A stretch of DNA of 64,000 nucleotides from Geosiphon pyriformis uo1 (Eukaryota > Fungi > Glomeromycota). The notes beneath the pieces are model-generated. The model did not search any database. It was not told the origin of the DNA and saw only the letters and a list, made by a program, of their open reading frames with translations. The stretch is from positions 525,757-589,756 of the forward strand of contig JAAOMT010000523.1 of the NCBI GenBank assembly GCA_016748015.1, in the 5' to 3' direction. Within the stretch, counting starts at the first letter, position 1. Every line of letters begins with the position of its first letter. A program made the position numbers and the translations under genes. Shown here in pieces: positions 25,245-64,000 of this stretch.

Positions 25245-25261
25245 TGGTGCTCCCTGTGAGG
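25245..25261 (+). promoter_or_regulatory. Primer binding site TGGTGCTCCCTGTGAGG (resembles the complement of a tRNA-Ile(UAU)-like 3' end; assignment tentative)
   Basis: Starts 2 nt after the LTR terminal CA and begins with TGG. Confidence 0.75.
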
Positions 25262-25304
25262 TATAATCTTACAAAGAACCAGCACTATCAGCAATTATTC
25301 AAAA

Positions 25305-31507: not shown

Positions 31508-31537
31508 AAACATTTCAACCCAAAAATATAACAAAAG

Positions 31538-32920: not shown

Positions 32921-32974
32921 ACAACCAAAAGAGTATATAAAGACACAGTACACATGACAAAATCAACCAAGAAA

Positions 32975-33610
32975 ATGAAAATACCAGATTATATTCACAC
33001 TTTAGCTCAACAATTGTTCCAAGCCTTAAGTAAACAACAGTTAGATATAGAAATTGTTATTAACAACCAAATAATTTGCTATTGAAACATCCAAAAAAAA
33101 ATAAAAAATACACCATACTAGCAACCACCAAAGAACAATAAAAACTGGACAGATAACTTAATAGAAAAAGTAAAGAACACTTTTGAGAAAATACCTGTTA
33201 TGGTATCAACAGAAAAGCTTACAAAAGAAAATTGGAAGCAATGAACAGAACGACTTCCAATATCATATTGCTACTACCAGTTAGGTCAAAAATTAAATAT
33301 TCAGGAGTTGTATATTAACAAATCCAAGAAAATATTTAACCAAAACATAATACAACAAATTAAAAAATTTATTGGAAAAAAACCGAATTCAACACTATAT
33401 GTTAGAACAATATACTGACTATACAACATATTTCAAGACTATTCAGAAATACTGTTACACTCTGACATGGAAACCATAATCATTAATCAATAAGGAAGAA
33501 TGAACAATACACAAGTAGAAGACATAAAAAACAGAGTCAAACAAACAATACTTGAAAAAGAAGTATTAGAATTAATTCAAAACGAAAATTTTGATGGAGC
33601 TCAATATTAA
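32975..33610 (+). pseudogene. ORF3: conserved accessory protein of unknown function (~210 aa), family B
   Basis: LAQQLF...IEIVINNQIICY...YCYYQLGQKL...RTIY*LYNIFQ...TIIINQ*GRM; homologs in families A and C. Confidence 0.75.
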
Positions 33611-38200: not shown

Positions 38201-40298
38201 GTCTTTGTATATTATTGGTCAATAGTATAAATTTAGGGTTTTTTTGAGGATAACATCTTTGTTAAAGTGTTTTGTGGTTGGATTAGAATACATACTGTGT
38301 AATATAGTTTCCTTTTCATTGTTCTTTATAACTCATTGTGGAGTGGGACAGTTTCAGTGTTCTCATCAATATAGTTGGTTGTCTTAAATAAAATAATTTT
38401 GGGCTTGTTTTTGTATGGTACTTTGTTTATGTTAAGATAATATCTCTTTGAAACATAGTGTTAATAGATACTAATGTAGTCGTTAATAAGTGAGTGTGTT
38501 TATGGGTCTGGGATTAGGTTTGTGGCATCTTCAACAAACTGTTAGCATTGGTGTTCTTGGATTCTTCTTTGTAATAGACTTTAAGTGGGAATTGCTGCAA
38601 ATAAGTACTTCATCTTGCATATTTTTCTTTCAGTTATGGGTTATTGAGTAACCAAATAAGTCTTTTATGATCTGTATATAGATCAAATAGTTGACTGAGA
38701 TGGTGTTTCCACGTTTGTACTGTCCAATAGATGGCAAGACATTCTAGATCTATTGTGCTGTAGATTTTTTTAGCTGGATTTGTGCTATGACTAGCATATG
38801 TAATTGAATGTTCTCTGTCATCTGGTTTTATTTGTAACATGATGGCTCCTAGTGTGTTCTTTGAGGCATCTGTAGCAACAATGAAATGTTTAGTAAAATT
38901 GGAGTAGATTAATATTGGGGATGTAATCAATCACTGCTTAAGATAGTTGAAGACTTTTTGTTGATCTTTCTTTTACAGATATGGCACATATTTGAACAAC
39001 AAGTGGTGAAGAAGTTTTGCAATAGCTGAAATCCCTTTGACAAATTGGCAGTAGTATTTTGTCAATCCTAAAAATTCTTATAACTTTTGAAAGTTGATTG
39101 GAGCTGAGAAATCTTTAACTTTTTGGATCTTATCTAGATTGGATTTGACTCTGTCTTTGCTAATTACATGTTCTAGGAATTTCAACTTGGTTTTCCCAAA
39201 GAAACATTTCTTAGGATTGAGTTTTAATCTGGCATTTTAAAGGCATTCAAAGACTTGTTAAAGATGGAGCAAATAATCATCAAATGTTTTAGAGAATATG
39301 TTTGTGTTATTTAAATAAACTATAACTGATTTCCAAAAAATTTCTTTGTACACAGCATCTATAAAACATTAGAATGTGGCAAGAACATTGCAGAGTCTAA
39401 AAAGCATTACATTGAACTTGAAGTTTCTATCTTGAGTGGTAAATACTGTTTTTCCTTTATCTTTTGGATCCATTTCGACTTGTTAATATCTGCTGGCTAG
39501 GTCTAATAATAAAAACCATTTCTTTTTTCCTAGATTGTTCAAGATTTTTTGGATGAAGGAAGTGAGATAACTATCTTCTTGGGTAACACTATTTAATTTT
39601 TGGTAATCTATGCAAAATTATATCTTTCCATTTTTCTTAGTGACCAAGACTATTGGGAAAGACCAAGAGCTTAATTATTTCTTAATTAAGCTGTTATTAA
39701 GTATTCATTGGACTTCTTGTTTGATAAGATTGTCACCAGATAGAAGTATTTAGTAAGCCTATTGTTTAATAGATTGAATGTTTCCCATATTAATCTGATG
39801 CTTTACAATGTTGGTATGTTCAAACTCATTTTCACTTGCAAAGACATCAGCATATTAATTTAAAAAAATCTTGAGTTGTATTTGCTGCAAAATACTTAAG
39901 TTTCCAAGATTCAATTTATTGATCTCTTCTAACATTAACAAGTAACTTTTTTTTGGCAAGTTTTATACTTATAAGGTAATATTGCAAAATAAGAATAGCT
40001 GTGCAAAATCTGGAATGGGCTGGGGTTTTTCAGAATATTGGATGTCTGGTGAGATGAAACCAATGAAAGTCTCTTCAGAGATTTCAATTACACCTTTATG
40101 GGGTTGTGGATGGGGATTTTGAAGTGTTTATAAACTTTAATCAGTAGATATAAGTTAGTAACATCAGCTAGGGAACAGATTTCAGGTTCAGCTTCAAATA
40201 ACAGGGCTTAATCTTGGATTTTTTGATTCATCTTGAGGATGTATTGTCAATAAGAAGGGATGGAAATAACTGTGTTGGTATAAATAAGTTTTATCTGG
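35263..40298 (-). mobile_element. Family C element, 3' part: 3' LTR 35263-36304, PPT, ORF3, integrase, RNase H, RT; cut at 40299
   Basis: ORFs 36807-37049 (ORF3), 37169-37441 (IN C-terminus) and 38634-38930 (RNase H, ATDAS). Confidence 0.88.
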
Positions 40299-43200
40299 TA
40301 TTACAGGTGATTATTTGGGGTCTCAAATCAAATAACAAACCCGTAACTTGGTGCTGGATTGATATTTTGGCATTGATTTCTGAAGATTCTGTTGATTTGA
40401 AGGTTTTGTTGTGGAGATCTTTGTATAATAGACAGAGATTCAGTTGTTGTTTTAGTAGCCTCCTGGAATCACAATTCTGTCGAATTTTTTTTTAGTGTGG
40501 TAGCTGGTAATTCTCTTGGTAAGCTATTCTTAAATCTATGAGTGTTCTATCCTTGTTTTATGGGTTTTTTACCAGTCTCTATGACATCTGTATTCCAGTG
40601 CTTAATTTTTTAATCAATTAGTAAATAATATCAAAGAAAATAAAAAAAAATAAAAAATAAGAAATAAGCCAAGGCAATAATGGTTAGTATCCTGTCAATA
40701 ACCATGATCAAAAGCTATTGTTCTAGTGTGATTAAGTATCAATTACTATCAACATAAAGTGTTGATAGTAGAGAGTAGATTTGAGATAAAAAATAATTAT
40801 TTATTGATATTTGTGAGTTAAAAAATCACTTAGATCAAATTTAAACTGAGAGGTCTGTTTTTTTTTATTTTTAATGCTACCACTATATATACATAATTGA
40901 AATTTCTCAATTCCTCAATACTTTACACCAGAAATTCTAGAATTTCTGGAATTTTGCAATTCTTTTGAGAAAAATTTTGGAATTCTGGAATCCTGCAATT
41001 CTTTGTATAAGAATCTTGAAATTCCTGAAATTCTGCAATTTCTCTGAAAAAAATCCTGAAATTCCATATTTTACTACAGTTACTTCTGATTGACTAATTT
41101 ATATGTTAATTTACTTTCTATATTCTATAAGTAACATTATTTTCTTCTCTTTAATATTAAGCTCCATCAAGATCTCCTAATTCTAATTCTCTGTCTTTAA
41201 GTATTTTTTGAACTTTTTTTCAAGAATTACTTGTGCTATCTTGTTCTGTAATTTTTCAAATTAAATATTTGTTATTTTTCCCATTTGGTTAATGGTAATG
41301 AAGTTTATTTCTGGATTGAGTAAGATTTCTGAAATTCAGTGTGTAGCCAATAAATGGCTTTTGCTTGTATGGTTAAATTGTTCTTCCTCATAAATTGTTT
41401 CAGTTGTTGCAGTATTGTTGTGTCAAATAATTATTTTGTCTTATTCATATACAAGCTCTGAATGTTCAAGTGTCATCCCAAATAAAAGTAACAAAAGTTT
41501 TTTGGAAATTGTTGTATCTACCAATTCCAAGTTTCTATAGTCAATTCTTGATATTGGGTGATTTTTGATTGTGTTTCTATTGCCAATTTTACTTTTGTAA
41601 TTATTTTGTTCATAGTATTCTCTGTTTTTCTCTGTATTTTATTTTATGGTTTTTTTCTGGTGTTTGTGTATTTGATAGTTTGTTGGTTGATTGTGATTTC
41701 CATCTCTTGTTGTTGTATTAGTTAAAAAAATTGTTGTGCTAGTGAGTGAATGTTGTTAGTAATCTCCATTTTTCTGCTGTTTTTTTATTGCATATCCTGT
41801 GTTTTTATATATTTTTTTGGTTGTTCAATTTTATGTGTTTGGTTCAATGATTATAATTGGTTTTAGATCTTGTGAAATTTTATCTGGTTTGACTAGTATT
41901 CTTTGTACTCCTAATTGTGGAATATTAATGATAGATAATAATACTATATGGTGATATTGTTTTAGTTAATTACCATATGCTGCTTTGGTTAAGATTTTGT
42001 TGTTTAACTTTAATTTATAAGCTTCATTTCTAAGAATTTCTTCTATGTAAAATGGTCTGTCCCATTTGGGGTCAAATTTTTCATTCCATTATTTTTCTGC
42101 TTTAGTACAATATAAAAGTACTTTGTCTCCAATATTGAATTCAACTGGTTTCTCTAGTAGTTGGTTATTATGTATTTTTTTTTGTTTTTTTTGTGACTTT
42201 TGGATGTTATCAGCTGCTCTTCACTGTGTGTTTTCTAGTGTCTTCATTAAGTCATATGTTCTTTTTAACAATGTTCTTTAAAAATTCTCTTCTGTTATTA
42301 ATTCTGTTGAATATGTCTTGACTTCTATTTTAACTGATAATATTGCAGTTCTACTGTATATTAATTCAAATGGTGTTGTTTGTGTAGTGTTTTGTTTTAT
42401 TGTCCAATAAGCAAATAATATTAATGGTATAATTAAATTCTATTTGTCCTGGTTTTCTTGGCTGATTTTTTTAATAGCTTCACACAATGTTCTATTAAAC
42501 CTTTCAACTAACTCATTTGTTTATAGATAGTATAATAATGATAATGGTCTTTTTATTTCAAATCTTTGACTTAATTCTGCCAATGTTCTATTTACAAAGT
42601 GAGTTTTTTGATCTGATAGTAGTTCTTTTGGACATTTGTGTCAACAGATCAAATCTTGATGAATGAATTCAGCAATAGATTCTGCATTTGCTCTTTGAAT
42701 GGCTTTTGCTTCTGGCCATTTAGTGATATAGTTTATGGCTACTGCAATATATTTGTTGTCTCTGCTGGTTATTGTTAATAGTTCGACTAAGTCAATTCCA
42801 ATACAATCAAATAGTTGTCCCACTTTGATTGGTCTCAATAGTTCACTGGGTTTTGTTCCACTTTTTCTTTGACAAGCATTACAATTTTGAACATATTGAA
42901 TAATGTCCAGATATATTGATGGCCAATAGTATCTTTTTCTGGTTTTTTCTATGGTTGCTTTTTTGTGAAAATGTCCTGCTGTTGGGTCTGAATACATGTT
43001 GAATAATATTGTCTCTTTTTTTAGTTTTGTGATTACTCTGGTTGATTGATCTAGATTTTTTTTGTTCTTTTAGTAAAGTATATTTTGATGGTTGATAAAA
43101 TATTTTGATTGCTGTTTTATATTGTTTTGTTCTTTTTGAGATAATTTCTTCTTGAACAATTGGATATTTATATAATATTAGAGTTGTTGGTATTTTTGTA

Positions 43201-46083
43201 TATTCATGTTTTGTTATATTTTTGGGTTTAAAATGTTTTTAGATTTGTTTTATTTGTAACAATCTGTCAGCATTTCTGTTTTCTTTTCTTTTTTTATAAT
43301 GTACTGTATAATTAAATAGTGAAAGTTCTATTTTTCATCTAACATGACAATTATCTACAAATTCTTGTTTCTGAATTGAAATCAATCCTTTGTGATTGGT
43401 ATATGCATCAAACTTTTAACTCAAGTATTTTTTCTATTTAATAACAGTCCAATAGATAGCTAAGTGTTCCAGTACTGGAGTTTTATAGTTTTTTTCTGCT
43501 GGACTTAAGCTTCTACTGACATAAGCTACTGGATGTTCTCTTCTATTTAGTTCTTTCTGCAATAGTACTACTTCCAATGCTTGGTCTGATGTATTAGTGG
43601 TGATGATAAATGGTTTGCTGTGATTTGAATACATCAACACTGGAGCTTGAATAAGCTTTCTTTTCATTGTGTTGAATGCTTTTTGTTGAGCTTTTGTCCA
43701 TTTATATTTTACATTCTTAGTTTGTAAATGATGAAGTAGCTGAGCCAGTTTAGAAAAGTTTTTAATAAAATGGTAATAATATCCAGCAAATTCTAAGAAG
43801 CTCTTAGTTCTGTCAAGTTGGTTGGTATTAAAAAATTCTTTACTATTGTGATCTTATCTGGATTCATTTTGATACCATCTTTGCTTACAACATGTCCCAA
43901 AAACTTGAGTTCTGTTTTTCCAAAGAAGTATTTGTTGGCATTTAGTTTCAATTCTGCTTGTCTAAGTCTTTCAAATACTTGTTGGAGATAATACAAATAA
44001 TCATCAAATGTTTTTGAGAACATATTGGTGTTATCTAAGTATACGATTACTGATTTCTATAGTAGTCCAGTATAGACAATTTCCATAAGTCTTTGGAAAG
44101 TGGCTGGAGTATTTATCAAGCCAAATAGCATAACTTTGAATTCAAAATTCTTTTTTCATGTTGTAAAAACTGTTTTCTCTTTATCTTCTAGTTTCATGGC
44201 TACCTACCAATAACTGCTGTCTAAGTCCAAAGTTGAGAACCATTTTTTTCCTCCAAAAGCATCAAACAGTTCTTGGATCTTTGAAATTGGGTAACTATCT
44301 CCTTTTGTTACTCCATTCAGTTTTCAGTAATCCACACAAAAGTGGATTTTTCTATTTTTCTTATGGACTAGTACCATTGGTAATGACTATGGACTCATTG
44401 ATGGCTGAATTAGCCTGTTGTCAAACATCTGATTGATTTCTTAACAAATAATCTTATGGCTAGCTAGTGGTATTCTGTATGCTCTCTGTTTAATTGGCAT
44501 TGCATCTCCAGTTTTGATTTAATGTTAGATGATGTTAGTTCTGCCAAATTTGTTTTCACTGGCAAAGATGTTATTGAAATTGTTGAGTAGTATTTTAAGT
44601 TGCATATGTTATAATGAGTCCTAAATTTTCCAAGTTCATCTGTTCCAATTGTTTTGGTTAAAGCAGATAACATTTTTTTCGTCCATATATAATTTAAGAT
44701 GTGATATCTACATATCTACACAATTATAAAAAGTCTAGAATAGTATTTGGCAGTTGGTCTTCAATTTTGGTGGTTAAGTATCCAATAGTAGTTCTTTTTG
44801 GTATCTTGATGACATTTCCTGTGTTGTTGTAAATGGTGATTTTGATGTAACTGTAGTTCTTGACTGGTATGTGTAGATTGACTAATCCAATTTCTCCTAA
44901 TTCACAAAGTGTTACTTCTGCCTTAAAAATCTGAGCTTGGTCTTTTATTTTTCTTTTTATAACTATTATGTACTGGTCATATGATGAAATGGAAATTGGT
45001 TGATAAGTGAAGATAATTTTTCCCTTGTCAATAATCTCTTCTTCTGCCATATTGACTAGTATATTTATTCTATCCATTAATTTGAATTCTTGTATCTCTC
45101 TTGTTGTTATCCCTAATTCTTCTTTGTTTTCCACTAATACTAATTAAGCTATTTTAACCAGAGACAGGAATATTGCCTATGTTATCTTTTTGTTTAGATC
45201 TATAATATATGTCTTTTCTGAGTTATTTTGTAGCATGGCAATGATATTTCCTACATATTTTGCATCAATTATTTCTCCCTTGATGTTGATTCCTTTTTTG
45301 GCTAAGCTACTCCTAAATACTAACTAAACTATTGTTGTTATTAGAATTTCCAGTGCTATTTTGAGATCAATGCAGGTGCATGAATGGGGTTCCAATTTGA
45401 TGAGATCTTTTCTCAGATATCTTAGATCAAACTCTACATTAGTATTATGCACACGTTTTGGCATAATAGTTTCATTATTATCACTAAACCATTTAAGTTT
45501 CTGTTTCTTAGTGAGATTAGGAAGTGCGATGTATGTTTTGGCACTTGAATCAGAGTTTGAATTATCATAACTTTTGTGGTCATTTGGAACAGAGTTGGAA
45601 CTATTATTTTTGTCATTATCATTGTCAGAGTTTGAATCAGAATTGAAAGTTGATTTTGATTTTAATGTGCAGCTGCTGATTGGTTCTTCTTCTTCCAAGA
45701 TTGTGTAGATCATGCATGTTAAATTGTAAATGAGGTCACATTCATTACAATATTGGAAGTCATATGGAATCAAACAATGGTCATATAGTCTTGTGTTTAT
45801 TTCTTTTAAACATTGTTCTTGCTCTTTTCTTGTTGGTGCTAAGTTTTAATAGTGCTCATGAAACTCTTCTGGACTTGTTTCTATGTTGAGAAAAACATCT
45901 GGATTTGGGATAAGTATGATGTCAACTGGTTTTGGGGGATTATTCTTAATTTCTAGAATTTTGCTGGGTATGGTTCCTTTGACTTTGGCATTTGCCATTT
46001 TCCAGATTTCATCTTTGTCATGTGAGTAGCCATTCAAGCAGGTTATTGCTTGGTGCCAGGCTGCAGTAATAGGAGTACTATGA
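40299..46083 (-). mobile_element. Family B element, 3' part: 3' LTR 40299-41136, ORF3, IN, RH, RT, dUTPase, Cys-rich region; cut at 46084
   Basis: ORFs at 42641, 43434, 43793, 44724 and 45324 are colinear with the element at 24409-34477. Confidence 0.9.
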
Positions 46084-48456
46084 TGTTATGGTTTAAGAAT
46101 TTAGCAAAAGAATTATAAAAATAATATAAACTATTCAATTATAATATAGCACAGTAATAATTTTAGAAAGGTAATAATTAACATAGTAGCAAAACATCAT
46201 CTCGTAATAGTGGCAAGCACCAGTTCACAATAGCAGCCAACACCAATTGGTCATAGCAGCAAACATCAGGTTAAAATATCAAAAAAAAAGCATTACAATG
46301 TGTTTTTTTGTAGAACTACAAACATGTATATATATAGTAGCTTTAATATTGAGAAAAGTTAATTAAGTAATAAAAATCATAACTCATCAAGCAATAGATC
46401 CAATTTATTCAACAAACTCCACTTAAATCATACCTTTAAATTAAATATCCCAAAAAATCTTTAAATCAAAAAGAAATGAAAAAAAATATTTAAAACTGAA
46501 TTATCACAACCCCAAAGTAGTAAGAAACTTACTTGTGTTAATTATTAAATAAAACTATCATTCATCAGTTGAATCCTTTGAAAGAATAATCCCTGATCAA
46601 GATTATTCACGTTGTTACTAATTGATAAAAGCTTTATTGTGAAAATTAAAAAAAGCACTAAAAGCCATTAACATTCTGTGTTTTTAAATTAGAGAAACAC
46701 ATCAGGCAATTGCAAGGATAGCCTCAAAGAAAACCCCAGACAGTGGGTAAATTTCAGTTCAGCCTCTAAAAAGGATTACATAAACATACACAACAATCAG
46801 GAATTGAGAAATAACTTACATCATGACATTAAAGAGAAAGCCTTCAGTATAACAGTAACATTATCACACAAATAGAATTGAGGAACTCATAAGAGACTGA
46901 TTGCAATTAAGATGGGATATCAGCAATTAAATATACTAAGAAAACCATTTCGTAACATTTGGTGAATCTTATGAGGAAAGAAAATTAAAAAAGAAATAAT
47001 AATTAGCAATAATTCATTGCTAAAAAAGAAAAGACAAAAGTGGTAACAAAAACTTCTAATCTTACTGTTCTTGAATTCTGCTATGCTATTTACACACAAA
47101 ATCAAAGTGATCTTAGATTACCAGAAGGGTGTTGTCCAGCAGAATCTGCCCTCACTTATTATATCAATGCCAGAATAAATTATTATATAGGAAAAGAAGA
47201 AGAACTACACGACGCAAAACTTGAATTGTATAGAGAATTATCACAATATACTACAAAGAAAGTAGCAGTAATAGCCACAACTATTGTCAAAATCCATTGA
47301 GAAATTGAGCAATATGCCAATGAAAATTTTCTAATATCCACAGGAAACACTAGGGAACATGCCAACAAAACCAAAGAAAATTTAGAAACTAATCAGAAAA
47401 GTAACCAGCAAAAACTAGGAACATCTGCTCAAACACCAAAGAAAACTGTTACTCAATTAATAAAAAAACAATGTATTTATTCACCAGAAAATAAATCATA
47501 CCATTTTTTACCAGAAAATAAAATACAAATTCTATTAGGAGCTGCATCATCATCAACATTAACTTCACAAATGTCAAGAACTCCTAGTTATACTGATAAA
47601 ATTAAACAATGTAACTGGAGAAACATACCAATTACAGAAAAATATTCATTGTTATTCCAAAACTCTCTTTTTCAGCCAAAATTTGGAACAGGTTTTGAAA
47701 ACCATGAAGAAAAGTCTGAATCAGAATCCGAAAAAGAGACCAGCAAAAAAACAATTACAAGACCAGTTATTGGAACAAGCAGCCAGTCCAGAAACTAAAA
47801 AACTTATAATCAAGAAGAAGAACCGAATATAAGGAAAGCCACCTTTAAAAATGCTCAAGGAAATATCATTCTACTTCCTTTTAGACCAATAAGTCCACCA
47901 GCAGAAAATGGTGACAAAATGATCACACCATATATTACAAGACTAACAGATTTTTCAAAAGAGGAAGAAGAAACGGACATGCACACATAGTTCAGAGAAG
48001 TGCAAAAAGCCATCCAGGCAAATAACTGGAGTGACCAAAGAGCAATTCAAACATTATCTTTCTTCCTGAAAGGCACAGTCGACTTGTAGTATCAAAGCCT
48101 GAAAACAAAACCCATGAGCTTCACTGAATTTAAAAATGCACTCCTGAAGTATTTTAGCAACCCAAACACCATAATCCAACTACAGAATGAATTCAATACT
48201 ATCAAGCAAAGTACTGGTAAAACTGTCACCCAATACCTTGCTCGATTCAATTGAATTTGCCATCAGATTGAAGTGATTGAACAAGGATACTACATTGATT
48301 TTCAGGTTTTAAATCAGTTTATTAGAGGATTAAAAAGCGGCATTTTAGGAAGAATATGCCCTGCCCACCCTAATTCTTTACCAGAAGCCATTACACTTGC
48401 CAGAGCTCTTGAATCAGCTGAGAAAGAAGCTAACCATAGTCAAATAATTAACATAG
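46084..48456 (+). mobile_element. Family D element, 5' part: LTR 46084-46957, PBS (TGGTGAATC...), gag from GTG 47040; interrupted by family A
   Basis: CGTAACA-TT-TGG junction; capsid-like QVLNQFIRGLKS...PEAITLARALE. Confidence 0.88.
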
Positions 48457-49484
48457 TGTTATCAGTAGAATTTTAGCTATTAATTAGCAGGAAAATTACC
48501 CTTATAATTCCTATAATTAATTAGTATATTAATATCATTCCAAATTATCATTTATTATTTAATCAATTATCACATATCACGATTTAATTAAATAATCCAA
48601 TTAGTATAACAGAAAGTAAAATGATCAAATTACACAATACCCTGAACTTTGTAACATTCAAAAATTCGCCAAAATTTACAAAAATTCGCCGAAATCTATA
48701 AGAAATTCGCCGAAATTATGAATAGTTCACCCAAATTAATCAATAGTTCAGCAAAATAACTTGTAGTCCATCAAAATGTATCTTTAGTTTGCCAAAATTT
48801 GAGCAAAGAGAAAAAGTGCAAGTTCATAGACTAATACTACAACAAGTTGTAAAAAAGAAGAGCTTTTTTCTTCAAGAAAATGTATCTTACTTTAGATTTA
48901 TCACTTAGAACCATTCCTACACACACAAAAAGAAATAAATATCAAATAATTCGAAAAACCAAATTCTTTAATTATTGTACTTGGAAAATCCCCAAAACCC
49001 AATTAACGTTTTGAAATTGATTAGCTACCAATTTCAGTAAACTGTTAGTGACTCCAGGCCTGTATAGAAAACGTTTCTCTTAACAGAATTCAATTTCTTT
49101 TACTTTTCTTTTATTTTCTTATTATAATAATTAGGATAGCCTACAGACAAGATTCTTATAGAAGAGTTGACTTTCACAACAAAGTAACTACACATTTTTA
49201 GTAAGCTTCCAGACGAGCAATTTTTGGGAAAGAGTTGACATTTACTATAACATAACTACATAAAATAACTGGCAAAAAATTGGTCATTCTACTTAGAAGC
49301 CCAGCAGTTCAAATTATAGGAGATAATTTGAAGATAAATTCAGTTACTGGAGGTCCAACTACTTCCTGGAAACGTGAATTCATAGCAAATTAACATTAAC
49401 AACATTCAAGAAAAGAGACCAAAAACCACCAGTAAGATTTGGTGCTCTTTCACGGAAATAACACAGCAAACAACAAACTTCAAA

Positions 49485-52400
49485 GTGGCAACCACACCAG
49501 ACACAACAATTCTAGAGTATTATCAGTTAATTTACACCCATTGCAAGCAGAGATTTAACATCCCAGACAGAATTGAAATTGTTGAAAGAACACTCTACCA
49601 ATATATTAAAAACTGTATTAACAATTATCTTCTTGGAAATTACAACATTTCAGAAGTTAGAAGCAATCTTTACAATAATCTAGTGCACTATTCACAATTA
49701 AGAACTGAAGATCTTAACAGTGAAACACTTGCCATCTACTTTCAAGAACTCAATTACAACATTATCAAGTATTGTGAAGAAAAATACCCAGTACAGTCTA
49801 AATACTCTCTTGACTTTGAATCAGAAACAGAAACAGACAACAAAGGCAAACAAAAAGTGAAACAACACTCAAAAACTGCTCCAAACACTCCAATACTACC
49901 AAAGACAACTGCCAAACACTTGCAAACACCTGAACAAGAAACAAGTGTCAAATTACCACTTTCTATTACACCATTTCCAATTTCACTTGCTCGACCACAA
50001 ACACCAAATTCATCACTTAACCATTTTTTCAGACCAGAAGATTTTCAGTCACCTAGAAATCCTACTTAACAGCAGAAACCTATATTAACAAGCACTAATA
50101 TTATTGAATACTTGCAGAAAAACGAAAGTGATCATTCAGAAAATTTGGAAAGTGAAGAAACTGAATCAGAACAAGGAGAAGCCACAGAAAATAAAAAGGA
50201 AATAACAACTGCTTACATTGCAAAAATTCCAGAATTCACTGGTGAAGACAATAATACCAGTCCTCAAGAATGGCTTGACAAAGTTCAAAAAGCAGGAGAT
50301 ACAAATGGTTGGATTGCAGCAAGAATGCTCAAAGCAATTCTCTACATTCTCCAAGGAACAGCAGAAGAATGGTTTGAAAATTTAGAAGAACCATTTGAAA
50401 ACTGGCAAGTATTCAAAGATGCTTTTCTACAACAATTCACCGACAACAATATCTCTATCACTCTCAGAAATTGCTTTTGCAATATCAAACAAGAAACATC
50501 TGAAACTGTTATGACTTATCTTGGAAGATTTAACAAACTTCTCAGATGAATCCAACAATTGAAAACCAATGACTACTATTCTGATGCTCAAATTCTGAAT
50601 TAGTTTATAGCAGAGTTAAAAGACAAACTGATTAAGAAAGTCTGTCCACATGCTCCAGCAGACTTAGCAACTGCTATTAGACATGTAAAAAGCTATAAAA
50701 TAGCAATGGAAGAAGCAAATCACAGCAAACTTGTAAACTTTACAATTAGAGAAACCAGTTCAGCAGCTGAGAAGAAGATAGACCAACTCACAAAAAAGGT
50801 TCAAAGCTACTTCACAAACCAACAATAACAGCAACAACAACCACAAAGATATCAACCCCTACAATGATGCAACCAAAACAATTTTGGATCACCATCCAAC
50901 AACCAACCTCAAAATTGTCATTATTGTGGAATTCCAGGACACTGGAAACAAGATTGTAGAAAATTACAAAGAGACCAACAAAACAGAAGTAATCAATGTT
51001 ACTCTTCACCACAACAATTTTATTACCAATCTCCCCCACCAACTTATTATTTACCAAGACCACAAAATCAAAACAGTTACTATCTACCAGCTCTACAACC
51101 AATGCAGCAACAATATCAGCAACTTTTACCAATTCAGCCATATCAGACACCACCCACTCAACAATATCAAGTACCAGCAAGAAGATTGATTTAACATAAC
51201 CAATTTACACTCCAAAATCAATTGCAGAGTAACAACAACAGAATCAATCCAAATAACCAGTTGGTTCCCCGAAATTCTGGTCAGCAAAGACCCAATTACT
51301 ATCACACTCAATCCAGTTATCTTACAATACCAGAGGAATCAGATTTTCAACAAACTGCACTTTCTGAAGGTAAAGTTGCAGCACCAAGATCAAACCCTTC
51401 CAACCACAACATTCTACCAGCTCAAATTGCCCAAAATGCCAATTTGTCAGATATATTTCTATTTGAATTTGAAGCAAATAAATCACCATTTCTGTTTAAT
51501 AATACAGCAGTTAATCAACAGAAAGCAATTACTGCTATGTACACAGAAGCTATAGTGGAAAGAAAACTCATTCGCTTAATCTTAGATAGTAGATCGGCTG
51601 GAAGTATCATTACTTACCAGCTGATACAACAACTCAAACGAAATGTAAACAGACCAGCTCAAACAGTTATTGTCACAGCTGATGATATGAAGAAGACTCC
51701 AGTAAGAGAAATTGATAATTTCCTCTTTTCAATTGATGGAATCACCATTCCAGTTAAAGTTCTTGTTATGGATGCACCCCAATACTAAGCTCTAGTCAGA
51801 AATAATTGGCTTCTTAAGGCCAATGCAAACCTGAACTGGGAAATTCAAGAACTTAAAATTTTATATCAAGAACAATATACCATAGTACCTGCAACTTATG
51901 GTACCTTTAACAAATGATCAGAAAAAGCTCTAATATTTGAATTTGAAGAAGAAAAAGAAATGCCACTTACTGAAACCTACATGGCTCTTGGATCACCATC
52001 CAATTGGGCTGAGGAAACAGAACCAGAGATTTTCGAAGAATCAAGAAGATGAAAGAAAGTTAGATATTCTACACCAGAATCACGAAAAGAACCACCATAC
52101 ATTCCACTAAAATGCAAAGATTGCAAAAAGAAGCTTTCATCTATGGGAGCCTGTATTTCCCCAGAAAAGGAATACAAAACTCACACTTGCTACTTCTGCA
52201 AGGCATGCCATAAAGAATAATTTGGATTCCCAAAGAGAAGTGGAAAATGGGACAAAACTCCTTGTCTTACTTGTGGAGAAAGACTACCAGAAGAATGCAA
52301 TTGGATTGATGTAGCAATGAGAGGAGGAGTATGTAATTAAACCTGTCAATATGCTCTATCAATTTCGGAAAAAGTCAGAAGAAAAACACTATTTGATGCA

Positions 52401-55109
52401 GCATACAACAGTGCTTTCAATAAATGTTACCACTACCCTCATAATGCTGAAATAATTTTTGACTTAGCAATGGCATTGATCAATAGAGCCACCCAAGAAG
52501 ATGTTTGCCAAATGAAAGAAGCTAAATACATTGAGTATACTATGGAATTAGCTGGATTTGATTATGAAGATAAAGTAGAAACCTACCACCAAATTGCAAG
52601 TCACACATATCCGACCAAAAAAGCTCAAATTCAATGATTAGAGCAAATAAACATTCAATTGTGTGAAGAATGTGTTATGCCTTGTGATGACCAATGGTGT
52701 TTAGAATGTTATGCTCTTAGCATTCCTCTGCTGGATGAGAATGATGAAAATGAAATCGAATTTGGAGTATTTAAACTAGTAGAAAAACTACCAACCACCC
52801 CATTCTATCTTCTTAAAAAGCAACTACCTCTACAACTTAAATATTTTGACAACCATGGCCAAGGAATCAGACCAGAAAAAACACACAAAATTGATGCCAG
52901 ATATGACCTAAGATACCCAGAAAAAGATACTTTGGTTCTCCAACCAAAGTCTTTGACAAAAATCAATCTCAAAATTGCTCTTGAAATTTCACCTAAAGCA
53001 ATAGTTCAAATTGCCTCCAGATCATCATTGGCAAGCAAAGGAATCAATATTAGAGGAGGAGTTATAGATGCAGGATACATTGGAGATATTATCATCATGT
53101 TGCAGAATGTAACAGACAAACCATTTAAGATTGAACATGCTGAAAAAATTGCTCAAGCAATTTACCTACTCTTAATCAATATTTCGGGTCTACAATCAGT
53201 TAACAACAGAGAACAATTGGGAAAAAGTGAAAGAGGAATTCAAGGTTTTGGTTCAACTAGACGATTTACAGTTCTAGTAAACATAGCTCTTAAAATACAA
53301 AATGAATCTCATCAGATTCTTCAACTTCCCCAACCAATTACTATTTCACCTTTTGGAGAACATCACGAAATTTACACTTGCTCAAAACCCACTACTACCC
53401 AACAAATCTTTGAATCCAATAAACAAATCTGTTTGAAGCATGAAATCTCAATTCCAAACATTTATATTTCCAAAGGAATAAAAAAATTTTGAGTTACATT
53501 TTACAATCCCAATAATTACTCTATTGTTTTATTAAACAAATTAGAGATTAGAATCATACACAGCAATATTTTTCAAGATGAAAACCCTCAAATTGTCTCT
53601 AATTTTATCGAAATTGTAAGGCACACTCTACTCCCAAATCCAAATATCATTTCCATCACTGAAAACTACCATCTTTTGAAAGAAAAACTCTCTTATATCA
53701 ACATGAGTCTCTTAGAACCTCAACAACAAAGACAATTGAAACAATTGATAGCTGAATTTCCAAATATATTTGCAAAAAACAACAATGATCTAGGAAAAAT
53801 GGATATTGTTCAACATCAGATCCATACAAAAGATGCTCCACCAAAATGTCAGCAAGCTTACAGAGTGCCACCTGCCAGTTACCAATTCATCAGAGAAGAA
53901 GTCCAGAGAATGCTTAATAACGGATTGATTCAATCATCAAGAAGTCCTTGGGCCTCACCAGTAGTCTTTGTCAAAAAGAAAAATGGAAAAATCAGATTTT
54001 GTGTTGACTATTGCCAATTAAACAGTGTGACAATTGGAGATGTCTACCTTCTTCTAAGAATTGATGACATGTTAGATGCTTTAGGAAAAGCCAAGTTTTT
54101 CTCAACTTTGTACTTAGAAAGTGGCTACTGACAAGTCGAAATGGACCCAAAAAACTGACCCAAAACAGTATTTACCACCCAAGGAGGAAACTATGAGTTC
54201 AATGTTATGCTTTTTGGACTCTGCAATACACCAACAACATTCCAATGACTCATAGATGTTGTATATAAAGAACTCTTATGGCAATCAGTAGTTGTTTATC
54301 TTGATAACACTAATGTATACTCACCAAGCTTTAAAGCCCACCTCATTCACCTGCAAAAAGTTTTTCAATGATTATGGAAAGCAAGATTAAAGTTAAACAT
54401 TGAAAAATATCACTTTGGAAAAACAAGCTTGATTTTTCTTGGACACATAGTTAGTAAAGATGGAGTCAAACCAAATCCAGGAACAATTAGTGCTGTCAAA
54501 AACTTTCAAACTCTCAGAAATACCACTGAACTACAAGGATTTATAGGATTAGCCTCTTACTATCAAAAATTCATAAAAAAATTCTCAAAAATTGCCAAAC
54601 CACTCAATTATCTTACCAACAAAAATGTGCCATACAAATAGACTGAAGAACAACAAAAAGCTTTTGAAACTCTCAAAACAAAATTGACAACAGCCCCAGT
54701 TCTTGCTTACTCAGACTTCAACAAACAGTTCTAATTAGCCACTGATGCTTCACACATAGTATTTGGTGTCATTTTATCACAATTAGATGAAAATGGGCAA
54801 GAACAAGTCATTGCCTATGCTAGTAGAACACTCAAATCAACAAAACTAAAATATGGCTCAACTGAATTAGAAGCTGCTGCAGTCATCTGGGCTCTTAAAC
54901 ATTTTCAACAATATCTGAAGAATGGAAAAGAATTTAACATTATAACAGACAATATTGGTCTTAAATGGCTCAATAAAAAGAAAATTGAACAAAGTACCAA
55001 ACAGTCTTGATGGAATGACTTCTTAGCAGACTACAAATATATTGTACATCACAAACCAAGAAAAATACACACTAATGTTGACAGCCTCTCAAAGATGAAA
55101 CAATATTAA
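49485..55109 (+). pseudogene. ORF1 of element A: Gag (CHYCGIPGHWKQDC), protease, Cys-rich domain, dUTPase, RT, RNase H in one frame
   Basis: ORFs at 49485, 50112, 51222, 52659, 53676 and 54429 are all in the same frame; SPWASPVV, RFCVDY, YLDN (from YLDD), ATDAS. Confidence 0.92.
52836..53261 (+). pseudogene. dUTPase domain (family A) with all five motifs
   Basis: DARYDL, ASRSSLA, GGVIDAGYIG, KIAQAI, ERGIQGFGST. Confidence 0.93.
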
Positions 55110-55165
55110 TACCAACATCAACACCAATAAACTGAACAGCAGAACAAACAACAAAATCAACAACA

Positions 55166-56550
55166 ATGAATCCAGAAAACTACAACAACATCAAAAACTA
55201 TTTGGAGACCCTCACCATGCTAGAAAATTGGTCCCCAAGTAAAAAACATCGATTACAACACCAATTCAAACAATATTTTATACACCACAACAAAATCTAT
55301 TACAAAAATCGTAAAAACCCAAACCAACCACTCAGATTAGTACAAGAAAATGAAAAAGAAACAATTTTATATAACATGTACACAGATCCGGCTTCAGCAC
55401 ACTTGGAAAGAGATGGAACAATTCAAAGAACTCTTGAACATTATTTTTGGCCTTACATGCAAAAAGACATTTGATAATATGTAGAATCTTGTGATAGTTG
55501 TTAAAGAAGAGGAGAAACTCACTCCACAGAACCTTTAAATCCAATCAAAGTTGGACAACCATTTGACAGAGTTGGAATTGATTTAGTCGGATTATTATCT
55601 ATCACAACCCAAGGAAATTACTATATTGCAGTAGCAGTAGATTATCTTACCAAATGACTTGAAGCTAGAGCCATCCAAAGAGCAGATGCAAAATTAGTAG
55701 CAAATTTTATCTATGAAGACATTATTTGTAGACATAGATGTCCAATTGAACTCTTATCTGATCAAGGAACACATTTTGTGAACAACTTGATACAAGAAAT
55801 TTGTGAATGATTCAATGTCAAAAGACCTCTATCATTGCCTTATTACTTTCAAACAAATAGACTTGTAGAATGTTTCAACAGAACATTGTGTAAATCATTG
55901 GCCAAAATCTCAACAAATTTTGAGCAAGAATGGGATATCTTTATTCCATCAGTGTTATTAGCATACAGAATACTTAAACAAGATACTATGAAACACACAC
56001 CATTTGACCTTACTTATGGAAGGACAGCAACATTACCAATTAATTTCACAGTAAAAACATACCCAGTGCAACCAATTAATAAAGAAAACTTTCAAAAAAC
56101 ACTTCAAAGAAGGGCCTACACTCTTCTCAGTACACTGGAAGGAAAAAGAAGAATAGCAGCAACTCACATTGAACATTCCCAAGCTCAACAAAAAAAAAGA
56201 CATGACAACAAATTACCACCCATTATCAACGAATTAAAGTTGGAAATAAAGTTCTCTTACATAGAACTAAGGCTGAAAAACAATGGAGTGGAAAATTTGA
56301 AAACAAATAGGACAGACCATTTTATATTCACGAAATTTTAGGCAATGAATTATACAAGTTAAGACTTGATGACAAAATACTAGCAAAAGTTGCACATAGA
56401 GACAGATTGAAACACTATTATTTCAGAAACAATCCTGAAACATTAATTCCACAAATTGGTACATATTCCTCTTTAATTAATTCTGAAGATATTCCCCAAA
56501 ATTTAGAACCAATAATTATAATAGAACAACAACCAAACTTAAACACTTAA
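55166..56550 (+). pseudogene. ORF2: integrase, family A
   Basis: Own ATG, in a different frame from ORF1; VGIDLVG, LSDQGTHF, LVECFNRTL. Confidence 0.88.
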
Positions 56551-56692
56551 ATTTTACAATAATTCTCTAATAAAAACACAAAGACAAAAATAGTAAATAA
56601 TTACAAAACACCCAAAACCAAAAACAAATAAAAACCTCATATCCAAAAATAATTTTCTTTATTCTCTCTTTTCATAATTAGTCAATTTTATC

Positions 56693-57398
56693 ATGATTAT
56701 TCTCCGAAATATTCAACAAATATCCCAAAAGTTAATGTTAATCTTGAAAATACTTCCTGACTTATCCATAATGATTAATGGAAGTCAAATTAATTATATT
56801 CAGAAAGAAACCACAGCCCCAGTAGCAAATTATTCACAGAACTATCACTCCTATAAAAAAAACAAGAAGTCACTCTGAAAATAGGTTACCAAGACTTTTA
56901 AAGCAAGCACTAGAAGAAAATTTTTTAATTGCTCCTATTGACATTCCACCAAATACTACAATGCAACAAAAACTTCTACTACTTTTCAATAAACAGAACA
57001 ATGAACACACTTCTATTTATAAATACTTTCACATTGGAAAGACACTTTATGAACGAAAACTGGAACTTGAAACAACAAATCTTACTCCTAAAGCTATAAA
57101 AAAACAAATTCATAATGAATTCAAAACAGCAGCTGGACCAACAAACACTTACTACAAACTTAGAGCAGCTTTTAGACTCTATGATTTGTTTAATACTTGT
57201 GAAAATGTTCTACAAAATCTAATACTGCAACCAATGAAAGTCCAATACATTGGCAAACTCACAGAACTGAAATTTCAACAATTTTCAGACCAGATTACTT
57301 CAATTATTTTAGATCACTATCTCAATATCATAGATAGTGCTTGGACTTTGATAGAGCTCAGTCTTGAGAAGAAGATTATGTTACCAGTAGAATTTTAG
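56693..57398 (+). pseudogene. ORF3: accessory protein, family A (one frameshift)
   Basis: ORFs 56693-56878 and 56961-57398; YFHIGKTL...RAAFRLYDLF...VQYIGKLTE. Confidence 0.75.
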
Positions 57399-58368
57399 CT
57401 ATTAATTAGCATGAAATTACCCTTATAATTCCTATAATTAATTAGTATATTAATATCATTTCAAATTATCATTTATTATTTAATCAATTATTACATATCA
57501 CGATTTAATTAAATAATCCAATTAGTATAACAGAAAGTAGGATGATCAAATTACACAATACCCTGAACTTTGTAACATTCAAAAATTCGCCAAAATTTAC
57601 AGAAATTCGCTGAAATTTATAGAAATTCGCCAAAATTATGAATAGTTCACCCAAATTAATCAATAGTTTAGCAAAATAACTTGTAGTCCATCAAAATATA
57701 TCTTTAGTTTGCTGAAATTTGAGCAAAGAAAAAAAGTGCAAGTTCATAAACTAGTACTACAACAAGTTGTATAAAAGAAGAGCTTTTTTCTTCAAGAAAA
57801 TGTATCTTACTTTAGATTTATCACTTAGAACCATTTCTACACACACAAAAAGAAATAAATATCAAATAATTCGAAAAACCAAATTCTTTAATTATTGCAC
57901 TTGGAAAATTCTCAAAACCCAATTAACGTTTTAAAATTGATTAGCTACCAATTTCAGTAAACTGTTAGTGACTCCAGGCCTGGATAGAAAACGTTTCCCT
58001 TGACAGAATTCAATTTCTTTTATATTTTTTTTATTTATTTTTTATTTTCTTATTATAATAATTAGGGTAGCCTACAGACAAGATTCCTATAGAAGAGTTG
58101 ACTTTCACAGCAAAGTAACTACACATTTTTAGTAAGCTTCCAGATGAGCAATTCCTGGGAAAGAGTTGATGTTTACTATAACATAACTACATAAAGTAAC
58201 TGGCAAAGAATTGACCATTTCACTTAGAAGCCCAGCAATTCAAATTATCTCCTATAATTTGAAGATAAATTCAGTTACTGGAGGTCCAACTACTTCCTGG
58301 AAACGTGAATTTACAGCAAATCAACATTAACAACATTCAAGAAAAGAGACCAAAAACCTCTGATAACA

Positions 58369-60944: not shown

Positions 60945-63900
60945 TGTTACCAGTAAAATTTTAGCTATTAATTAGCATGAAATTATCTTTATAATTCCTA
61001 TTATTAATTAACATATTAATATCAATTCAAATTATCACTTATTATTTAATCAATTTATCACATATCACGATTTAATTAATAATCCAATTAGTACAACAGA
61101 AAGTAAGATGATTAAATTATACAATATTCTGAACTTTGTAGCATTCTAAAATTTGCCGAAATTTACAAAAATTCGCCGAAATTTATAGAAATTCACCGAA
61201 ATTATGAATAGTTCACCCAAATTAATCAATAGTTCAGCAAAATAACTTGTAGTCCATCAAAATGTATCTTTAATTTGCCAAAATTTGAGCAAAAAGAAAA
61301 AGTGCAAGTTCATAGACTAGTATTACAACAAGTTGTATAAAAAAAGAGCTTTTCTTTTCAAGAAAGTGTATCTTACTTTAGATTTATTACTTAGAACCAT
61401 TTCTACACACACAAAAAGAAATAAATATCAAATAATTTGAAAAACCAAATTCTTAATTATTGCACTTGAAAAATCCCCAAAACCTAACTAATATTTTGAA
61501 ATTGATTAGCTACCAATTTCAGTAAATTGTTAGTGACTCCAGATCTGGATAGAAAACGTTTTCTCTGACACAATTCTATTTTTTTTACATTTCTTTTATT
61601 TTTTTTTTATTTTTTTATTACAATCATTAGGGTAGCCTACAGACAAGATTCCTGTAGAAGAGTTGACTTTCACAGCAAAGTAACTACACATTTTAGTGAG
61701 CTTCCAGACAAGCAATTCCTGGGAAAGAGTTGACAGTTACTACAATGTAACTATACAAAATAACTAGCATGAAATTGGCCATTCCACTTAGAAGCCCAGC
61801 AGTTCAAATTATAGGAGATAATTTGAAGATAAATTCAGTTACTGGAGGTCCAACTACTTCTAGAAAACGTGAATTTACAACAAACAGACATTAACAACAT
61901 TTAAAAAAAGAGACCAAAAATCTCCGGTAACATTTGGTGCTCTTCTACAGAAATAACACAGCAACAACAAACTTCAAAGTAGTGACCACACCAGACACAA
62001 CAACTCTAGAATATTATCAGTCAATTTACACCCATTGCAAGCAGAGATTCAACATCCCAGACGGAATTGAAATTGTTGAAAGAACACTCTACCAATACAT
62101 TGAAAACTGTATTAACAATTATCTTCTTGGAAATTACAACATTTCAGAAGTTAGAAGCAATCTTTACAATAATCTAGTGCACTATTCACAATTGAGAACT
62201 GAAGATCTTAACAGTGAAACACTTGCCACCTACTTTCAAGAACTCAATTACAACATTATCAAGTATTGTGAAGAAAAATACCCAGTACAGTCTAAATACT
62301 CTCTTGACTTTGAATCAGAAACAGAAACAAGCAACAAAAGCAAACAAAAAGTGAAACAACACTCAAAAACCACTTCAAACACTCCAATACTACCAAAGAC
62401 AACTGCCAAACACTTGCAAACACCTGAACAAGGAACCAGTGTCAAATTACCACTTTTTATCACATCATTTCCAATTTCACTTGCTCGACCACAAACACCA
62501 AATTCACCACTTAACTGTTTCTCCAGACCAGAAGATTTTCAGTCACCTAGAAATCCTACTCAACAGCAGAAACCCATATCAACAAGCACCAATATTATTG
62601 AATACTTGCAGGAAAATGAAAGTGATCATTCAGAATATTTGGAAAGTGAAAAAACTGAATCAGAACAAGAAAAAGCTACAGAAAACAAAGAGAAAATAGC
62701 AACTGCTTTCATTGCAAAAATTTCAGAATTCACAGGTAAAGATAGTCATACCAGTCCTCAAGAATGGCTTGACAAAATTCAAAAAACAGAAGATGCAAAT
62801 GGTTGAAATGCAGCAAGAATGCTCAAAACAATTTCATACTTTCTCTAAGGAACTGCAAAAAAATAGTTTGAAAACTTAGAAGAACTATTTAAAAACTGGC
62901 AAGCATTCAAAGATGCTTTTCTATAACAATTCACCAACAACAACACCTCTATCACTCTCAGAAACCGCTTTCGCAATATCAAGCAAGAAACATTTAAAAC
63001 TGTTATGACCTATCTTGGAAGATTCAACAAACTTTTCAAATGAATTCAACAATTGGAAACCAATGACTACTATTCTGATGCTCAAATTCTGGATCAGTTT
63101 ATAGCAGAGTTAAAAGACAAACTAATTAAAAAAGTCCACTCACATGCTCCAGCAGACTTAGCAACTGCCATTAGATATGCAAAGAATTATGAAATGGCAA
63201 TAGAAGAAGCAAATCACAGCAAGCTTGTAAACTTTGCAATTAGAGAAACCAGTTCAGCAGCTAAGAAAAAAATAGACCAACTCATAAAGAAGATTGAAAG
63301 CTATTTTACAAACCAACAACAACTGCAGCAACAACCACAAAAATATCAACCATCACAGTGATGCAACCAAAACAACTTTGGACCACCATCCAACAACCAA
63401 CTTCAAAATTGTCACTATTGTGAAATTCCAGGACACTGGAAACGAAATTGCAGGAAACTACAAAGAGACCAACAAAACAGGAGTAATCAATATTACTCTT
63501 TACCACAACAATCTTATTACCAACTTCCACTACCAACTTATTATTCACCAAGACCACAAATTCAAAACAGCTATTATCAACCAGCTTCACAACCAATTCA
63601 ACAACAATATCAGCAATCTTTACCAATTCAGCAATTTCAGACACCACCCACTCAACAATATCAAGTACCAGCCAGAAGATTGGTTCAATATAACCAATTC
63701 ATATCTCAAAATTAATTCAGTAATAATAACACCAGAATCAACCCAAACAACCAGTTGATTTTTCGAAATTCTGGTCAGCAAAGACCAAACTACTTTCACA
63801 CACAACCTAGTTATTTAATAATACCAGAAGAATCGGATTTTCAACAAACTGCACTTTCTGAAAGTAGAGATACAGCACCAAAATCAAATCTTTCCAACCA

Positions 63901-64000
63901 CACTATTCCACCAGCTCAAATTGCCCAAAATGCCAATTTGTCAGATATATTTTCATTTGAATTTGAGACAAATGAATCACCATTCTTGCTGAGTAATGCA
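60945..64000 (+). mobile_element. Family A element, 5' part: LTR 60945-61932, PBS, gag; continues beyond the window
   Basis: TGTTACCAG...CCGGTAACA termini; TTTGGTGCTC; 290-aa gag ORF; CCHC knuckle ~63410. Confidence 0.92.

Follow-up and report, generated by a model that had tools for sequence, protein, structure and literature searches.

Organization of element A

The window analyzed here, a 64-kb stretch (64,000 nt) of contig JAAOMT010000523.1 from the fungus Geosiphon pyriformis, is AT-rich, nearly CpG-free, and made up mostly of nested long terminal repeat (LTR) elements. Two of these are LTR retrotransposons of Ty3/Gypsy type in a decayed state, A (48457-58368) and B (24409-34477), and their best named protein relatives are G. 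pyriformis proteins. The layout described for them in the original prediction, in which a long open reading frame (ORF) for Gag and the enzymes is followed by a separate integrase (IN) ORF and by a third ORF ahead of the 3' LTR, was confirmed as whole in A and B and as partial in two further families. The following features were located in element A:

48457..49437, + strand: 5' LTR, 981 nt
48659..48800, + strand: U3 array, near-palindromic units 20-21 nt apart, the last one 41 nt
49440..49456, + strand: primer binding site (TGG...), directly 3' of the 5' LTR
49485..55109, + strand: ORF1, with a GTG-opened N-terminal extension, capsid, CCHC knuckle, protease (PR), Cys-rich stretch, dUTPase, reverse transcriptase (RT), and RNase H (RH)
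52101..52720, + strand: CxxC-rich stretch of ORF1, between protease and dUTPase
52875..53258, + strand: dUTPase (PF00692) of ORF1
55110..55165, + strand: spacer from the RNase H stop to the integrase ATG, 56 nt, G-poor
55166..56550, + strand: ORF2, the separately started integrase, with H2C2, rve, and an SH3-like tail; stops and one frameshift near 56255
56693..57398, + strand: ORF3, a conserved predicted-helical protein matching no family; ATG at 56693
57379..58368, + strand: 3' LTR

The two LTRs have TGTTA...TAACA ends and are ~94% identical (922 identities, 46 transitions, 11 transversions), the differences being mostly transitions, and a purine tract lies ahead of the 3' LTR. ORF1 can be read as a single frame from the GTG at 49485 to the TAA at 55107-55109, with 20 internal stops and zero frameshifts, and matches Retrotrans_gag, zf-CCHC, an aspartyl-protease-like stretch, dUTPase (E 3.7e-19), RVT_1, and RT_RNaseH. 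The Pfam set of the element comprises PF03732, PF19259 (below cut-off), PF00078, PF17917/PF17919, PF17921, and PF00665; the domain order is PR-RT-RH-IN, with a Ty3-type capsid and a Ty3-type RNase H. No chromodomain was detected by Pfam in the A integrase or among the precomputed domains of 120 listed integrase homologues. The integrase ATG at 55166 lies in a different frame from ORF1, and ORF3 has one frameshift, in a run of A near 56860, with its final codons falling within the purine tract and the 3' LTR. At all six RH-IN junctions of the window, a stop stands ahead of the integrase and is followed by an ATG, or by a one-base variant of ATG in decayed copies.

A separately started integrase in related elements

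The window copies are too decayed to settle whether the separate integrase is real, and relatives were therefore examined. A protein search with the A integrase, in which 120 of 241 matches were listed, had a length limit that excluded fused forms, so contig context provided the real test. Among the 120 listed homologues, 90 open with M-x4-Y and 88 are at least 395 aa long; Met1 is invariant in the integrase alignments, and the named homologues among the matches listed belong to Rhizophagus irregularis, R. clarus, and Geosiphon. From an integrase alignment search, 80 of 533 metagenome loci were fetched, and the junction was measured in 28 soil-metagenome loci, a set that leaves out L034 (a duplicate of L035) as well as L053, L065, and L100, whose integrase start could not be located reliably. 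For L028 and L040, the visible part of the upstream ORF is a C-terminal piece, and it has no RNase H match.

At every one of the 28 junctions, the upstream ORF closes with a stop and the integrase opens with an ATG. The gaps range from -11 to 727 nt and the frames split 8/7/13; stop and start overlap in five cases and lie no more than 5 nt apart in two more. The start context is strong, with a purine at -3 in 23 junctions and G at +4 in 24, and in 14 of 20 loci, as in A and B, the spacer has a lower G content than either of the genes beside it. No conserved splice acceptor or branch site was found in the RH-IN spacers examined. Stop and integrase restart were also present in otherwise open elements (L035, L038, L039, L042, and L048). 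Because stop and restart recur in open relatives, in all frames and with a strong start context, the RH-IN split is not decay. In agreement with the original prediction, these elements do not collapse to a standard gag-pol, and intact relatives keep the integrase as an ATG-started ORF of its own.

Fused forms were found as well. Seven more distant loci (L088, L093-L095, L097, L099, and L101) have the integrase fused to RT-RH, as do most open elements among the loci from contaminants of metagenome-assembled genomes. Among the 120 listed Pol homologues, 36 end no more than 14 residues past the RNase H match and 35 carry the integrase. A short hydrophobic tail motif closes 31 of the 88 long integrase homologues, and likewise the integrases of A and B.

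Two side observations concern these loci. In L054 (3361-6702) and in proteins P0282, P0304, P0308, and P0358, 160-590 residues extend beyond RNase H before the stop, and the L054 extension has no convincing Pfam match. Many prokaryotic genome records (L102-L151) contain eukaryotic Gypsy retrotransposon contigs, which are probably host contamination; the record of L104 is titled Glomeribacter gigasporarum.

Phylogeny of the reverse transcriptase and integrase

The original prediction had proposed an RT/IN phylogeny, and the trees built here, from database matches with no GyDB or Repbase references, both group these elements. FastTree analysis of 122 RT-RH rows recovered a 71-row group with support 95. 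In a maximum-likelihood tree of 46 RT-RH rows, hand-picked from the 122 and with a bootstrap that had not settled, a 26-row group at 95/94 comprised A, B, 22 separate-IN rows, and the fused proteins P0290 and P0344. In an integrase FastTree of 183 rows, the fused label takes three changes, and the window integrases join L023, a locus that carries a Geosiphon-like ORF3, at 99. In the RT-RH trees, the nearest relatives outside the group are fused Gypsy-type Pols. The stop-IN-ORF3 layout and the lineage are very probably real, and the simplest reading of their history would be one fission of an ordinary pol, followed by occasional re-fusion or with fused basal members.

ORF3 is a conserved, predicted-helical protein

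All 120 listed homologues of the A ORF3 are G. pyriformis proteins, with 63-90% identity. Copies of ORF3 account for at least 120 Geosiphon entries annotated as "hypothetical proteins", which matters for annotation. Proteins encoded 3' of the integrase in the relatives' loci can be aligned both among themselves and to the Geosiphon ORF3, and the family forms 573 clusters at 50% identity. The ORF3 profile matched 19 of the 29 separate-IN loci having at least 600 nt downstream, 17 of these 19 having trained the profile, and none of 10 fused-group loci. Independent matches were obtained for L040 and L052, for L033, L055, and L058 with shorter flanks, and also for L102.

Structure prediction gave an all-helical ORF3 (predicted local distance difference test score, pLDDT, 93; predicted template modeling score 0.86). 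Several Arg and Tyr are among the conserved positions, and the protein is often basic (isoelectric point at least 8.7 in 14 of 22 sequences). No transmembrane-grade segment was seen in the 22 sequences, the top 19-residue hydropathy being 1.43. Comparison of ORF3 with Pfam, PHROGs, and PDB sequences gave no match; a Foldseek search of the model against PDB and BFVD gave none at E 0.001 (best VIA-align Z 4.4), and L051 ORF3 had no usable match in the ESM Atlas. Such negative searches with a predicted model would not prove a new fold. A likeness to the helical domain DUF1016_N (PF17761) was not supported, with 1 of 22 members reaching E 0.12 and hhalign probabilities of 1.2 and 0.2 for a three-sequence profile.

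The conserved Arg and Tyr may point to nucleic-acid binding. As to what the protein does, binding of LTR DNA would be a tentative first choice, with control of translation or of RNA slightly behind it and a role as packaging adaptor for the integrase rated somewhat lower again.

Additional 3' ORFs were noticed in other elements. In L038, a near-complete element, a fourth ORF of 284 codons (7404-8255), predicted to be coiled-coil-like, sits between the integrase and ORF3. Three fused-integrase outgroup elements bear a different 3' ORF (L088:7329-8096, L093:7295-7780, and L094:4835-5530), which we presume from its motif to be a GDSL/SGNH esterase. Esterase-type (GDSL/SGNH) ORFs are mentioned for LTR elements in excerpts of PMC6431247.

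An RNA hairpin before the integrase start

One subgroup of the relatives carries a hairpin that measures ~40 nt and contains a large bulge rich in purines; between its 3' end and the integrase ATG lie a few to a few tens of bases:

L035:4465-4500: hairpin; equivalent position in L027, L028, L034, L039, L040, L041, L049, L051, L056, L060, L067, L069, L078, L087, and L103

Copies were gathered by eye and with a covariance model built on 12 of them. Across 441 kb, the model gave 16 matches, every one of them on the sense strand at the pre-integrase position; L034, L067, L087, and, weakly, L027 were new. Pairing is kept in 96% of cells, and both partners vary in 9 of the 13 pairs of a structure-fitted alignment, a value reached by none of 500 shuffles; an unfitted alignment gave 6 of 13. 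Since G-U pairs are tolerated, the hairpin looks like an RNA element, and it could serve as a translation, exonuclease-blocking, or protein-binding element. Rfam had no match at the hairpin position in 17 loci, an exact-pattern scan of viral contigs returned none, and folding of the 90 nt upstream of the integrase gave no general stability signal.

Repeat arrays and folding of the LTRs

In family A, the U3 array has four to six units per LTR and recurs in the 3' LTR of the element and in the further copy that starts at 60945. Family B has a different unit sequence, spaced at 19-22 or 40-41 nt. Such spacing suits a protein binding on one helix face, which could be a host protein. Repeats in U3 are common among LTRs and may bind host factors. 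The description of these LTRs as structured held in part: LTR A folds more stably than shuffled sequences (z -3.1) and both LTRs carry regular near-palindromic repeats, whereas the folding of LTR B is not above shuffles (z -0.17).

An 8-nt motif, ACTGCGYC, recurs on either strand 3' of the integrase, in most cases close to where the 3' LTR begins, and largely in the hairpin-bearing subgroup:

L028:2378, L035:6368, L036:2141, L040:2511, L041:1981, L049:2317, L051:2054, L056:2015: ACTGCGYC motif sites

dUTPase, Cys-rich stretch, and GTG codon

The dUTPase of A is found also in six intact-looking database proteins (P0241-P0243, P0267, P0281, and P0289) and in none of 10 metagenome loci spanning PR to RT, and is thus a patchy feature. 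Inspection of P0299, P0305, and P0313, considered as further dUTPase carriers, suggested a domain that is dUTPase-like but degenerate, and these proteins were left out of the count. A dUTPase in the same position, between PR and RT, has been published for fungal Ty3/Gypsy elements (PMC2864245 and PMC6431247, in excerpts). With this precedent and the lack of the domain in the 10 loci, its use by the original prediction as a mark of complex retroviruses was not upheld. By eye, a second degenerate dUTPase-like stretch, resembling the domain of P0299, P0305, and P0313, seems to trail the full dUTPase in the window (53280-53600 and 29700-30000).

The CxxC-rich stretch has an intact homologue in P0281, the only one of nine dUTPase-flagged proteins inspected to carry it. 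The zinc finger claimed at this place is a CxxC-rich stretch that has no Pfam match. Its single-sequence fold had a pLDDT of 37.6 and gave no usable model.

The GTG that opens ORF1 lies in frame, in the context AAA-GTG-G, 46-62 nt past the LTR in three families, and the codon at this position is GTG in four of five copies and GTA in one. The N-terminal extension of the intact relatives L035, L051, and L022 opens with ATG. Because a Met also directly precedes the capsid of B, that of the fourth family, and that of six of seven Geosiphon gene models, a shorter, ATG-started Gag is an alternative, and we put the chances of a genuine GTG start at about even.

Two further observations were made on Gag in these relatives. 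An N-terminal domain with conserved His/Cys and Trp, belonging to no Pfam family, is present in L022 (3157-3780), L035 (6801-7436), and L051 (2480-3211). In the same three loci, the Gag of a next element follows after a single shared LTR, indicating copies in tandem.

Expression of the three reading frames

We favor, with a probability of roughly 0.6, a fungal Ty3/Gypsy-type lineage in which Pol stops past RNase H, a separate ATG-started integrase is made by ribosome restart, and a helical ORF3, possibly a nucleic-acid-binding regulator, is usual. Transcription from the 5' LTR would give a genomic RNA with three long ORFs, of which ORF1 would yield Gag and the enzymes through protease cleavage; polyprotein cleavage of this kind is established for Ty3/Gypsy elements. 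The integrase would be translated by ribosomes restarting on the same long RNA, and the free protein, unfused to Gag-Pol, would reach the cDNA by binding to it, to the RNA, or to the particle. ORF3 may regulate translation, bind U3, or carry the integrase, and the dUTPase and the Cys-rich stretch would be later, patchy additions.

The stop-start overlaps, the G-poor spacers, the strong start context, and the sense-strand hairpin point to control of the integrase at translation, and restart is the route that we would prefer, at slightly less than even odds. A shorter 3' RNA is nearly as likely, because long spacers hold upstream ATGs. Restart is described in excerpts of PMC5972666 for fungal victoriviruses, hypoviruses, SART1, LINE-1, and caulimovirus TAV, the last of which works over gaps of a few to 700 nt. 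Frameshifting and read-through were ruled out as routes to the integrase, since neither frame nor distance is conserved.

Several observations weigh against the favored lineage and its restart mechanism. The long spacers contain up to 12 upstream ATGs (L054 and L025), a poor fit to simple restart, and the hairpin is not found in the window, where the spacers are G-poor instead. Ten of the 29 separate-IN loci have no match to the ORF3 profile, L080 among them with a possible divergent version, and the matches that were obtained come largely from training loci. In the trees, one of which rests on hand-picked rows and an unsettled bootstrap, the fused Pol-IN proteins P0290 and P0344 fall within the group, the early-ending protein P0341 falls outside it, and several long-branch separate-IN rows lie outside the supported integrase group. 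Finally, RNase H and the integrase are continuous in three gene models of R. clarus. These models lose the last RNase H residues and the integrase start, and were read as containing predicted introns, the alternative being a real splice.

The same layout could be expressed differently: the integrase and ORF3 would come from shorter RNAs, either spliced ones that begin in the 5' LTR or ones driven by an internal promoter, and ORF3 would act as a DNA-binding transactivator of the U3 array. This is the circuit of the original prediction, for which foamy-virus Tas offers a likeness. It is consistent with the near-palindromic, regularly spaced U3 units whose sequences differ between families A and B, with the often basic ORF3 and its conserved Arg and Tyr, and with spacers that vary freely in length and in some cases hold many upstream ATGs. 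We nevertheless consider it unlikely, as neither an acceptor nor a branch site is conserved in the spacers, the searches with ORF3 retrieved no DNA-binding fold or family, U3 repeats of the general kind may serve host factors, and the sole covarying cis element found lies at the integrase start and, with its tolerance of G-U, looks like RNA. Still less probable is a role of ORF3 limited to packaging or targeting, as an adaptor that brings unfused integrase to chromatin or into the particle and takes no part in gene expression. The confinement of ORF3 to the separate-IN group, the lack in a free integrase of the Gag-Pol fusion that normally packages it, and the hydrophobic integrase tail motif would all suit an adaptor; the 10 of 29 separate-IN loci without a detectable ORF3 speak against it, since the integrase can apparently manage without ORF3 there.

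Two explanations address the split itself. Replacement of the original integrase domain by a captured Ginger/GIN-type stand-alone transposase has some precedent, as Ginger transposons encode a self-started rve-type integrase of ~420 aa (part of PMC5751038) and integrase replacement is known in retroviruses (part of PMC7947760). It is nonetheless quite improbable: the RT and integrase trees, which contain no Ginger sequences, give matching subgroups, and the nearest outside integrases are fused Gypsy-type proteins with the same N-terminal region. Ginger/GIN DNA transposons hold an integrase-type transposase between terminal inverted repeats and have no RT, whereas the integrase here sits inside LTR elements, downstream of RT-RH. 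Least credible of all, and given hardly any weight, is a split produced by decay or assembly, with a consensus that would give a normal gag-pol. The heavy mutation of the window copies (at least 20 internal stops in ORF1) and the two fused proteins and three fused gene models among the relatives could be taken in its favor, yet stop and restart occur at 6/6 window junctions and in the five open relatives, the integrase Met is invariant, and the three fused models drop the RNase H end and the integrase start, as a predicted intron would.

In a bolder version, the lineage would have given up the Pol-integrase fusion for a polycistronic, caulimovirus-like program. ORF3 would then be a transactivator with a new fold, needed to permit translation of the integrase by way of the start-codon RNA structure and able to read the LTR arrays as well. 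We regard this as unlikely; if true, a self-regulating circuit would have evolved independently of complex retroviruses.

Relation to known elements

With Ty3/Gypsy elements (Metaviridae, non-chromovirus), these elements share TG...CA LTRs, a primer site, a purine tract, a Ty3-type capsid, a CCHC knuckle, the PR-RT-RH-IN order, and the RNase H. They differ from the usual form, which in excerpts of PMC12440569 is gag-pol or gag plus pol with the integrase inside Pol, in having the integrase as its own ORF with its own ATG and ORF3 next to it. Fungal Ty3 elements bearing a dUTPase (Postia PosPlaTy3-5, Tuber Tmt1, and Phanerochaete elements) and planarian Burro have this domain between PR and RT, as here (PMC2864245 and PMC6431247, in part). 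A separate integrase is unreported for any of them in those portions of the papers, and the Postia elements come from a chromovirus survey, whereas the present elements have no chromodomain and a Cys-rich stretch precedes their dUTPase.

An additional sense ORF between pol and the 3' LTR, kept in most copies as ORF3 is, is known as aORF-3S (Athila, Bagy2, and env-like ORFs; available text of PMC7264820). Extra ORFs before the 3' LTR are thus an established theme, and the accessory ORF does not by itself signal a complex retrovirus, as had been proposed; the likeness is weakened further by the lack of an env-like protein or of a tether and second RNase H in these elements, where ORF1 ends directly past the Ty3-type RNase H. 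The aORF-3S proteins are often transmembrane and env-like, whereas the present ORF3 is predicted to be soluble and all-helical and is unrelated to any family searched. With caulimoviruses (TAV) and with the fungal victoriviruses and hypoviruses, SART1, and LINE-1 that use stop-restart, these elements share consecutive long ORFs, overlapping or variably spaced stops and starts, and a 3'-most accessory gene (PMC5972666, in part). The comparison is a functional analogy, as ORF3 has no TAV sequence or fold match in the libraries searched and caulimoviruses have no integrase.

Among recently named LTR lineages, Odin, lokiretroviruses, and Kuafuorterviruses keep the integrase in Pol according to the text available, and Troyka is an animal lineage with CG termini. 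In PMC13468544, of which excerpts were available, the phrase "separate open reading frame" concerns an added RNase H, and the accessible parts of papers on transposable elements of arbuscular mycorrhizal fungi give Gypsy abundance and no internal layout (PMC11952901; bioRxiv 2021.03.30.436303; PMC3248453; PMC2774666). A full-text literature search, with Repbase, GyDB, Dfam, and most subscription papers outside it, turned up neither an LTR lineage described as having a separately started integrase nor a paper naming this one, in agreement with the suggestion that the clade is undescribed; entries with this layout may stand in element tables such as Additional file 1 of PMC2864245 or the library of PMC11952901. 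The original interpretation is partly supported, the elements representing a separate-IN, orphan-ORF3 Ty3/Gypsy-type lineage with the dUTPase as a known and secondary feature.

The LTR lineages checked make their integrase within Pol, which fixes its amount and its delivery to the particle; a lineage with free integrase would show this fusion to be dispensable. Two questions thereby become testable, namely the route by which an unfused integrase gets to the cDNA and the means by which three long ORFs are expressed from one fungal RNA. For such tests the lineage offers intact natural elements (L038 and L054), a large family of proteins for which the fold searches gave no match, and, in the hairpin, a covarying RNA motif not in Rfam. 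LTR sequence makes up 41.2% of the Geosiphon genome (excerpts of PMC11952901). Because Ginger is scored by the rve domain (excerpts of PMC5751038), stand-alone rve proteins could be miscounted as Ginger DNA transposons.

Element B and other copies in the window

Besides element A, the following features were located:

24409..25242, + strand: 5' LTR of element B, near-palindromic units at 40, 41, and 22 nt spacing
25305..31507, + strand: ORF1 of B, GTG-opened, domain order as in A; RNase H contains a frameshift, and internal stops are numerous; final stop at 31505-31507
31538..32920, + strand: separate integrase ORF of B, ATG at 31538
32975..33610, + strand: ORF3 of B, matching the ORF3 profile with hhalign probability 93.9
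33625..34477, + strand: 3' LTR of element B
35464..39911, - strand: third family (C), partial, with RT-RH, stop, integrase, ORF3-like reading, and LTR
40296..46025, - strand: B-like partial copy, with dUTPase, RT-RH, stop, integrase, ORF3-like reading, and LTR
46084..48456, + strand: fourth family, partial, with LTR, primer site, GTG at 47040, and Gag; truncated where A starts
60945..64000, + strand: further family-A copy, LTR and Gag
12103-15833: another family-A copy, LTR and Gag

The LTRs of the four families, as the original prediction had stated, do not align overall and share short matches, the longest being 106 nt at 75%; the family-C segment in this comparison took in part of its ORF3. 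No matching target-site duplication of 4-6 bp was found for A; the candidate for B is 4 nt long with one mismatch and lies in an interrupted RNase H. The four bases to the right of the A 3' LTR (58369-58372) are identical to the four bases to the left of the next family-A LTR (60941-60944), and the left flank of A differs; this identity may reflect either chance or an inter-copy rearrangement. At 2242-2685, the window contains an AT-rich tandem repeat with a unit of ~114 nt.

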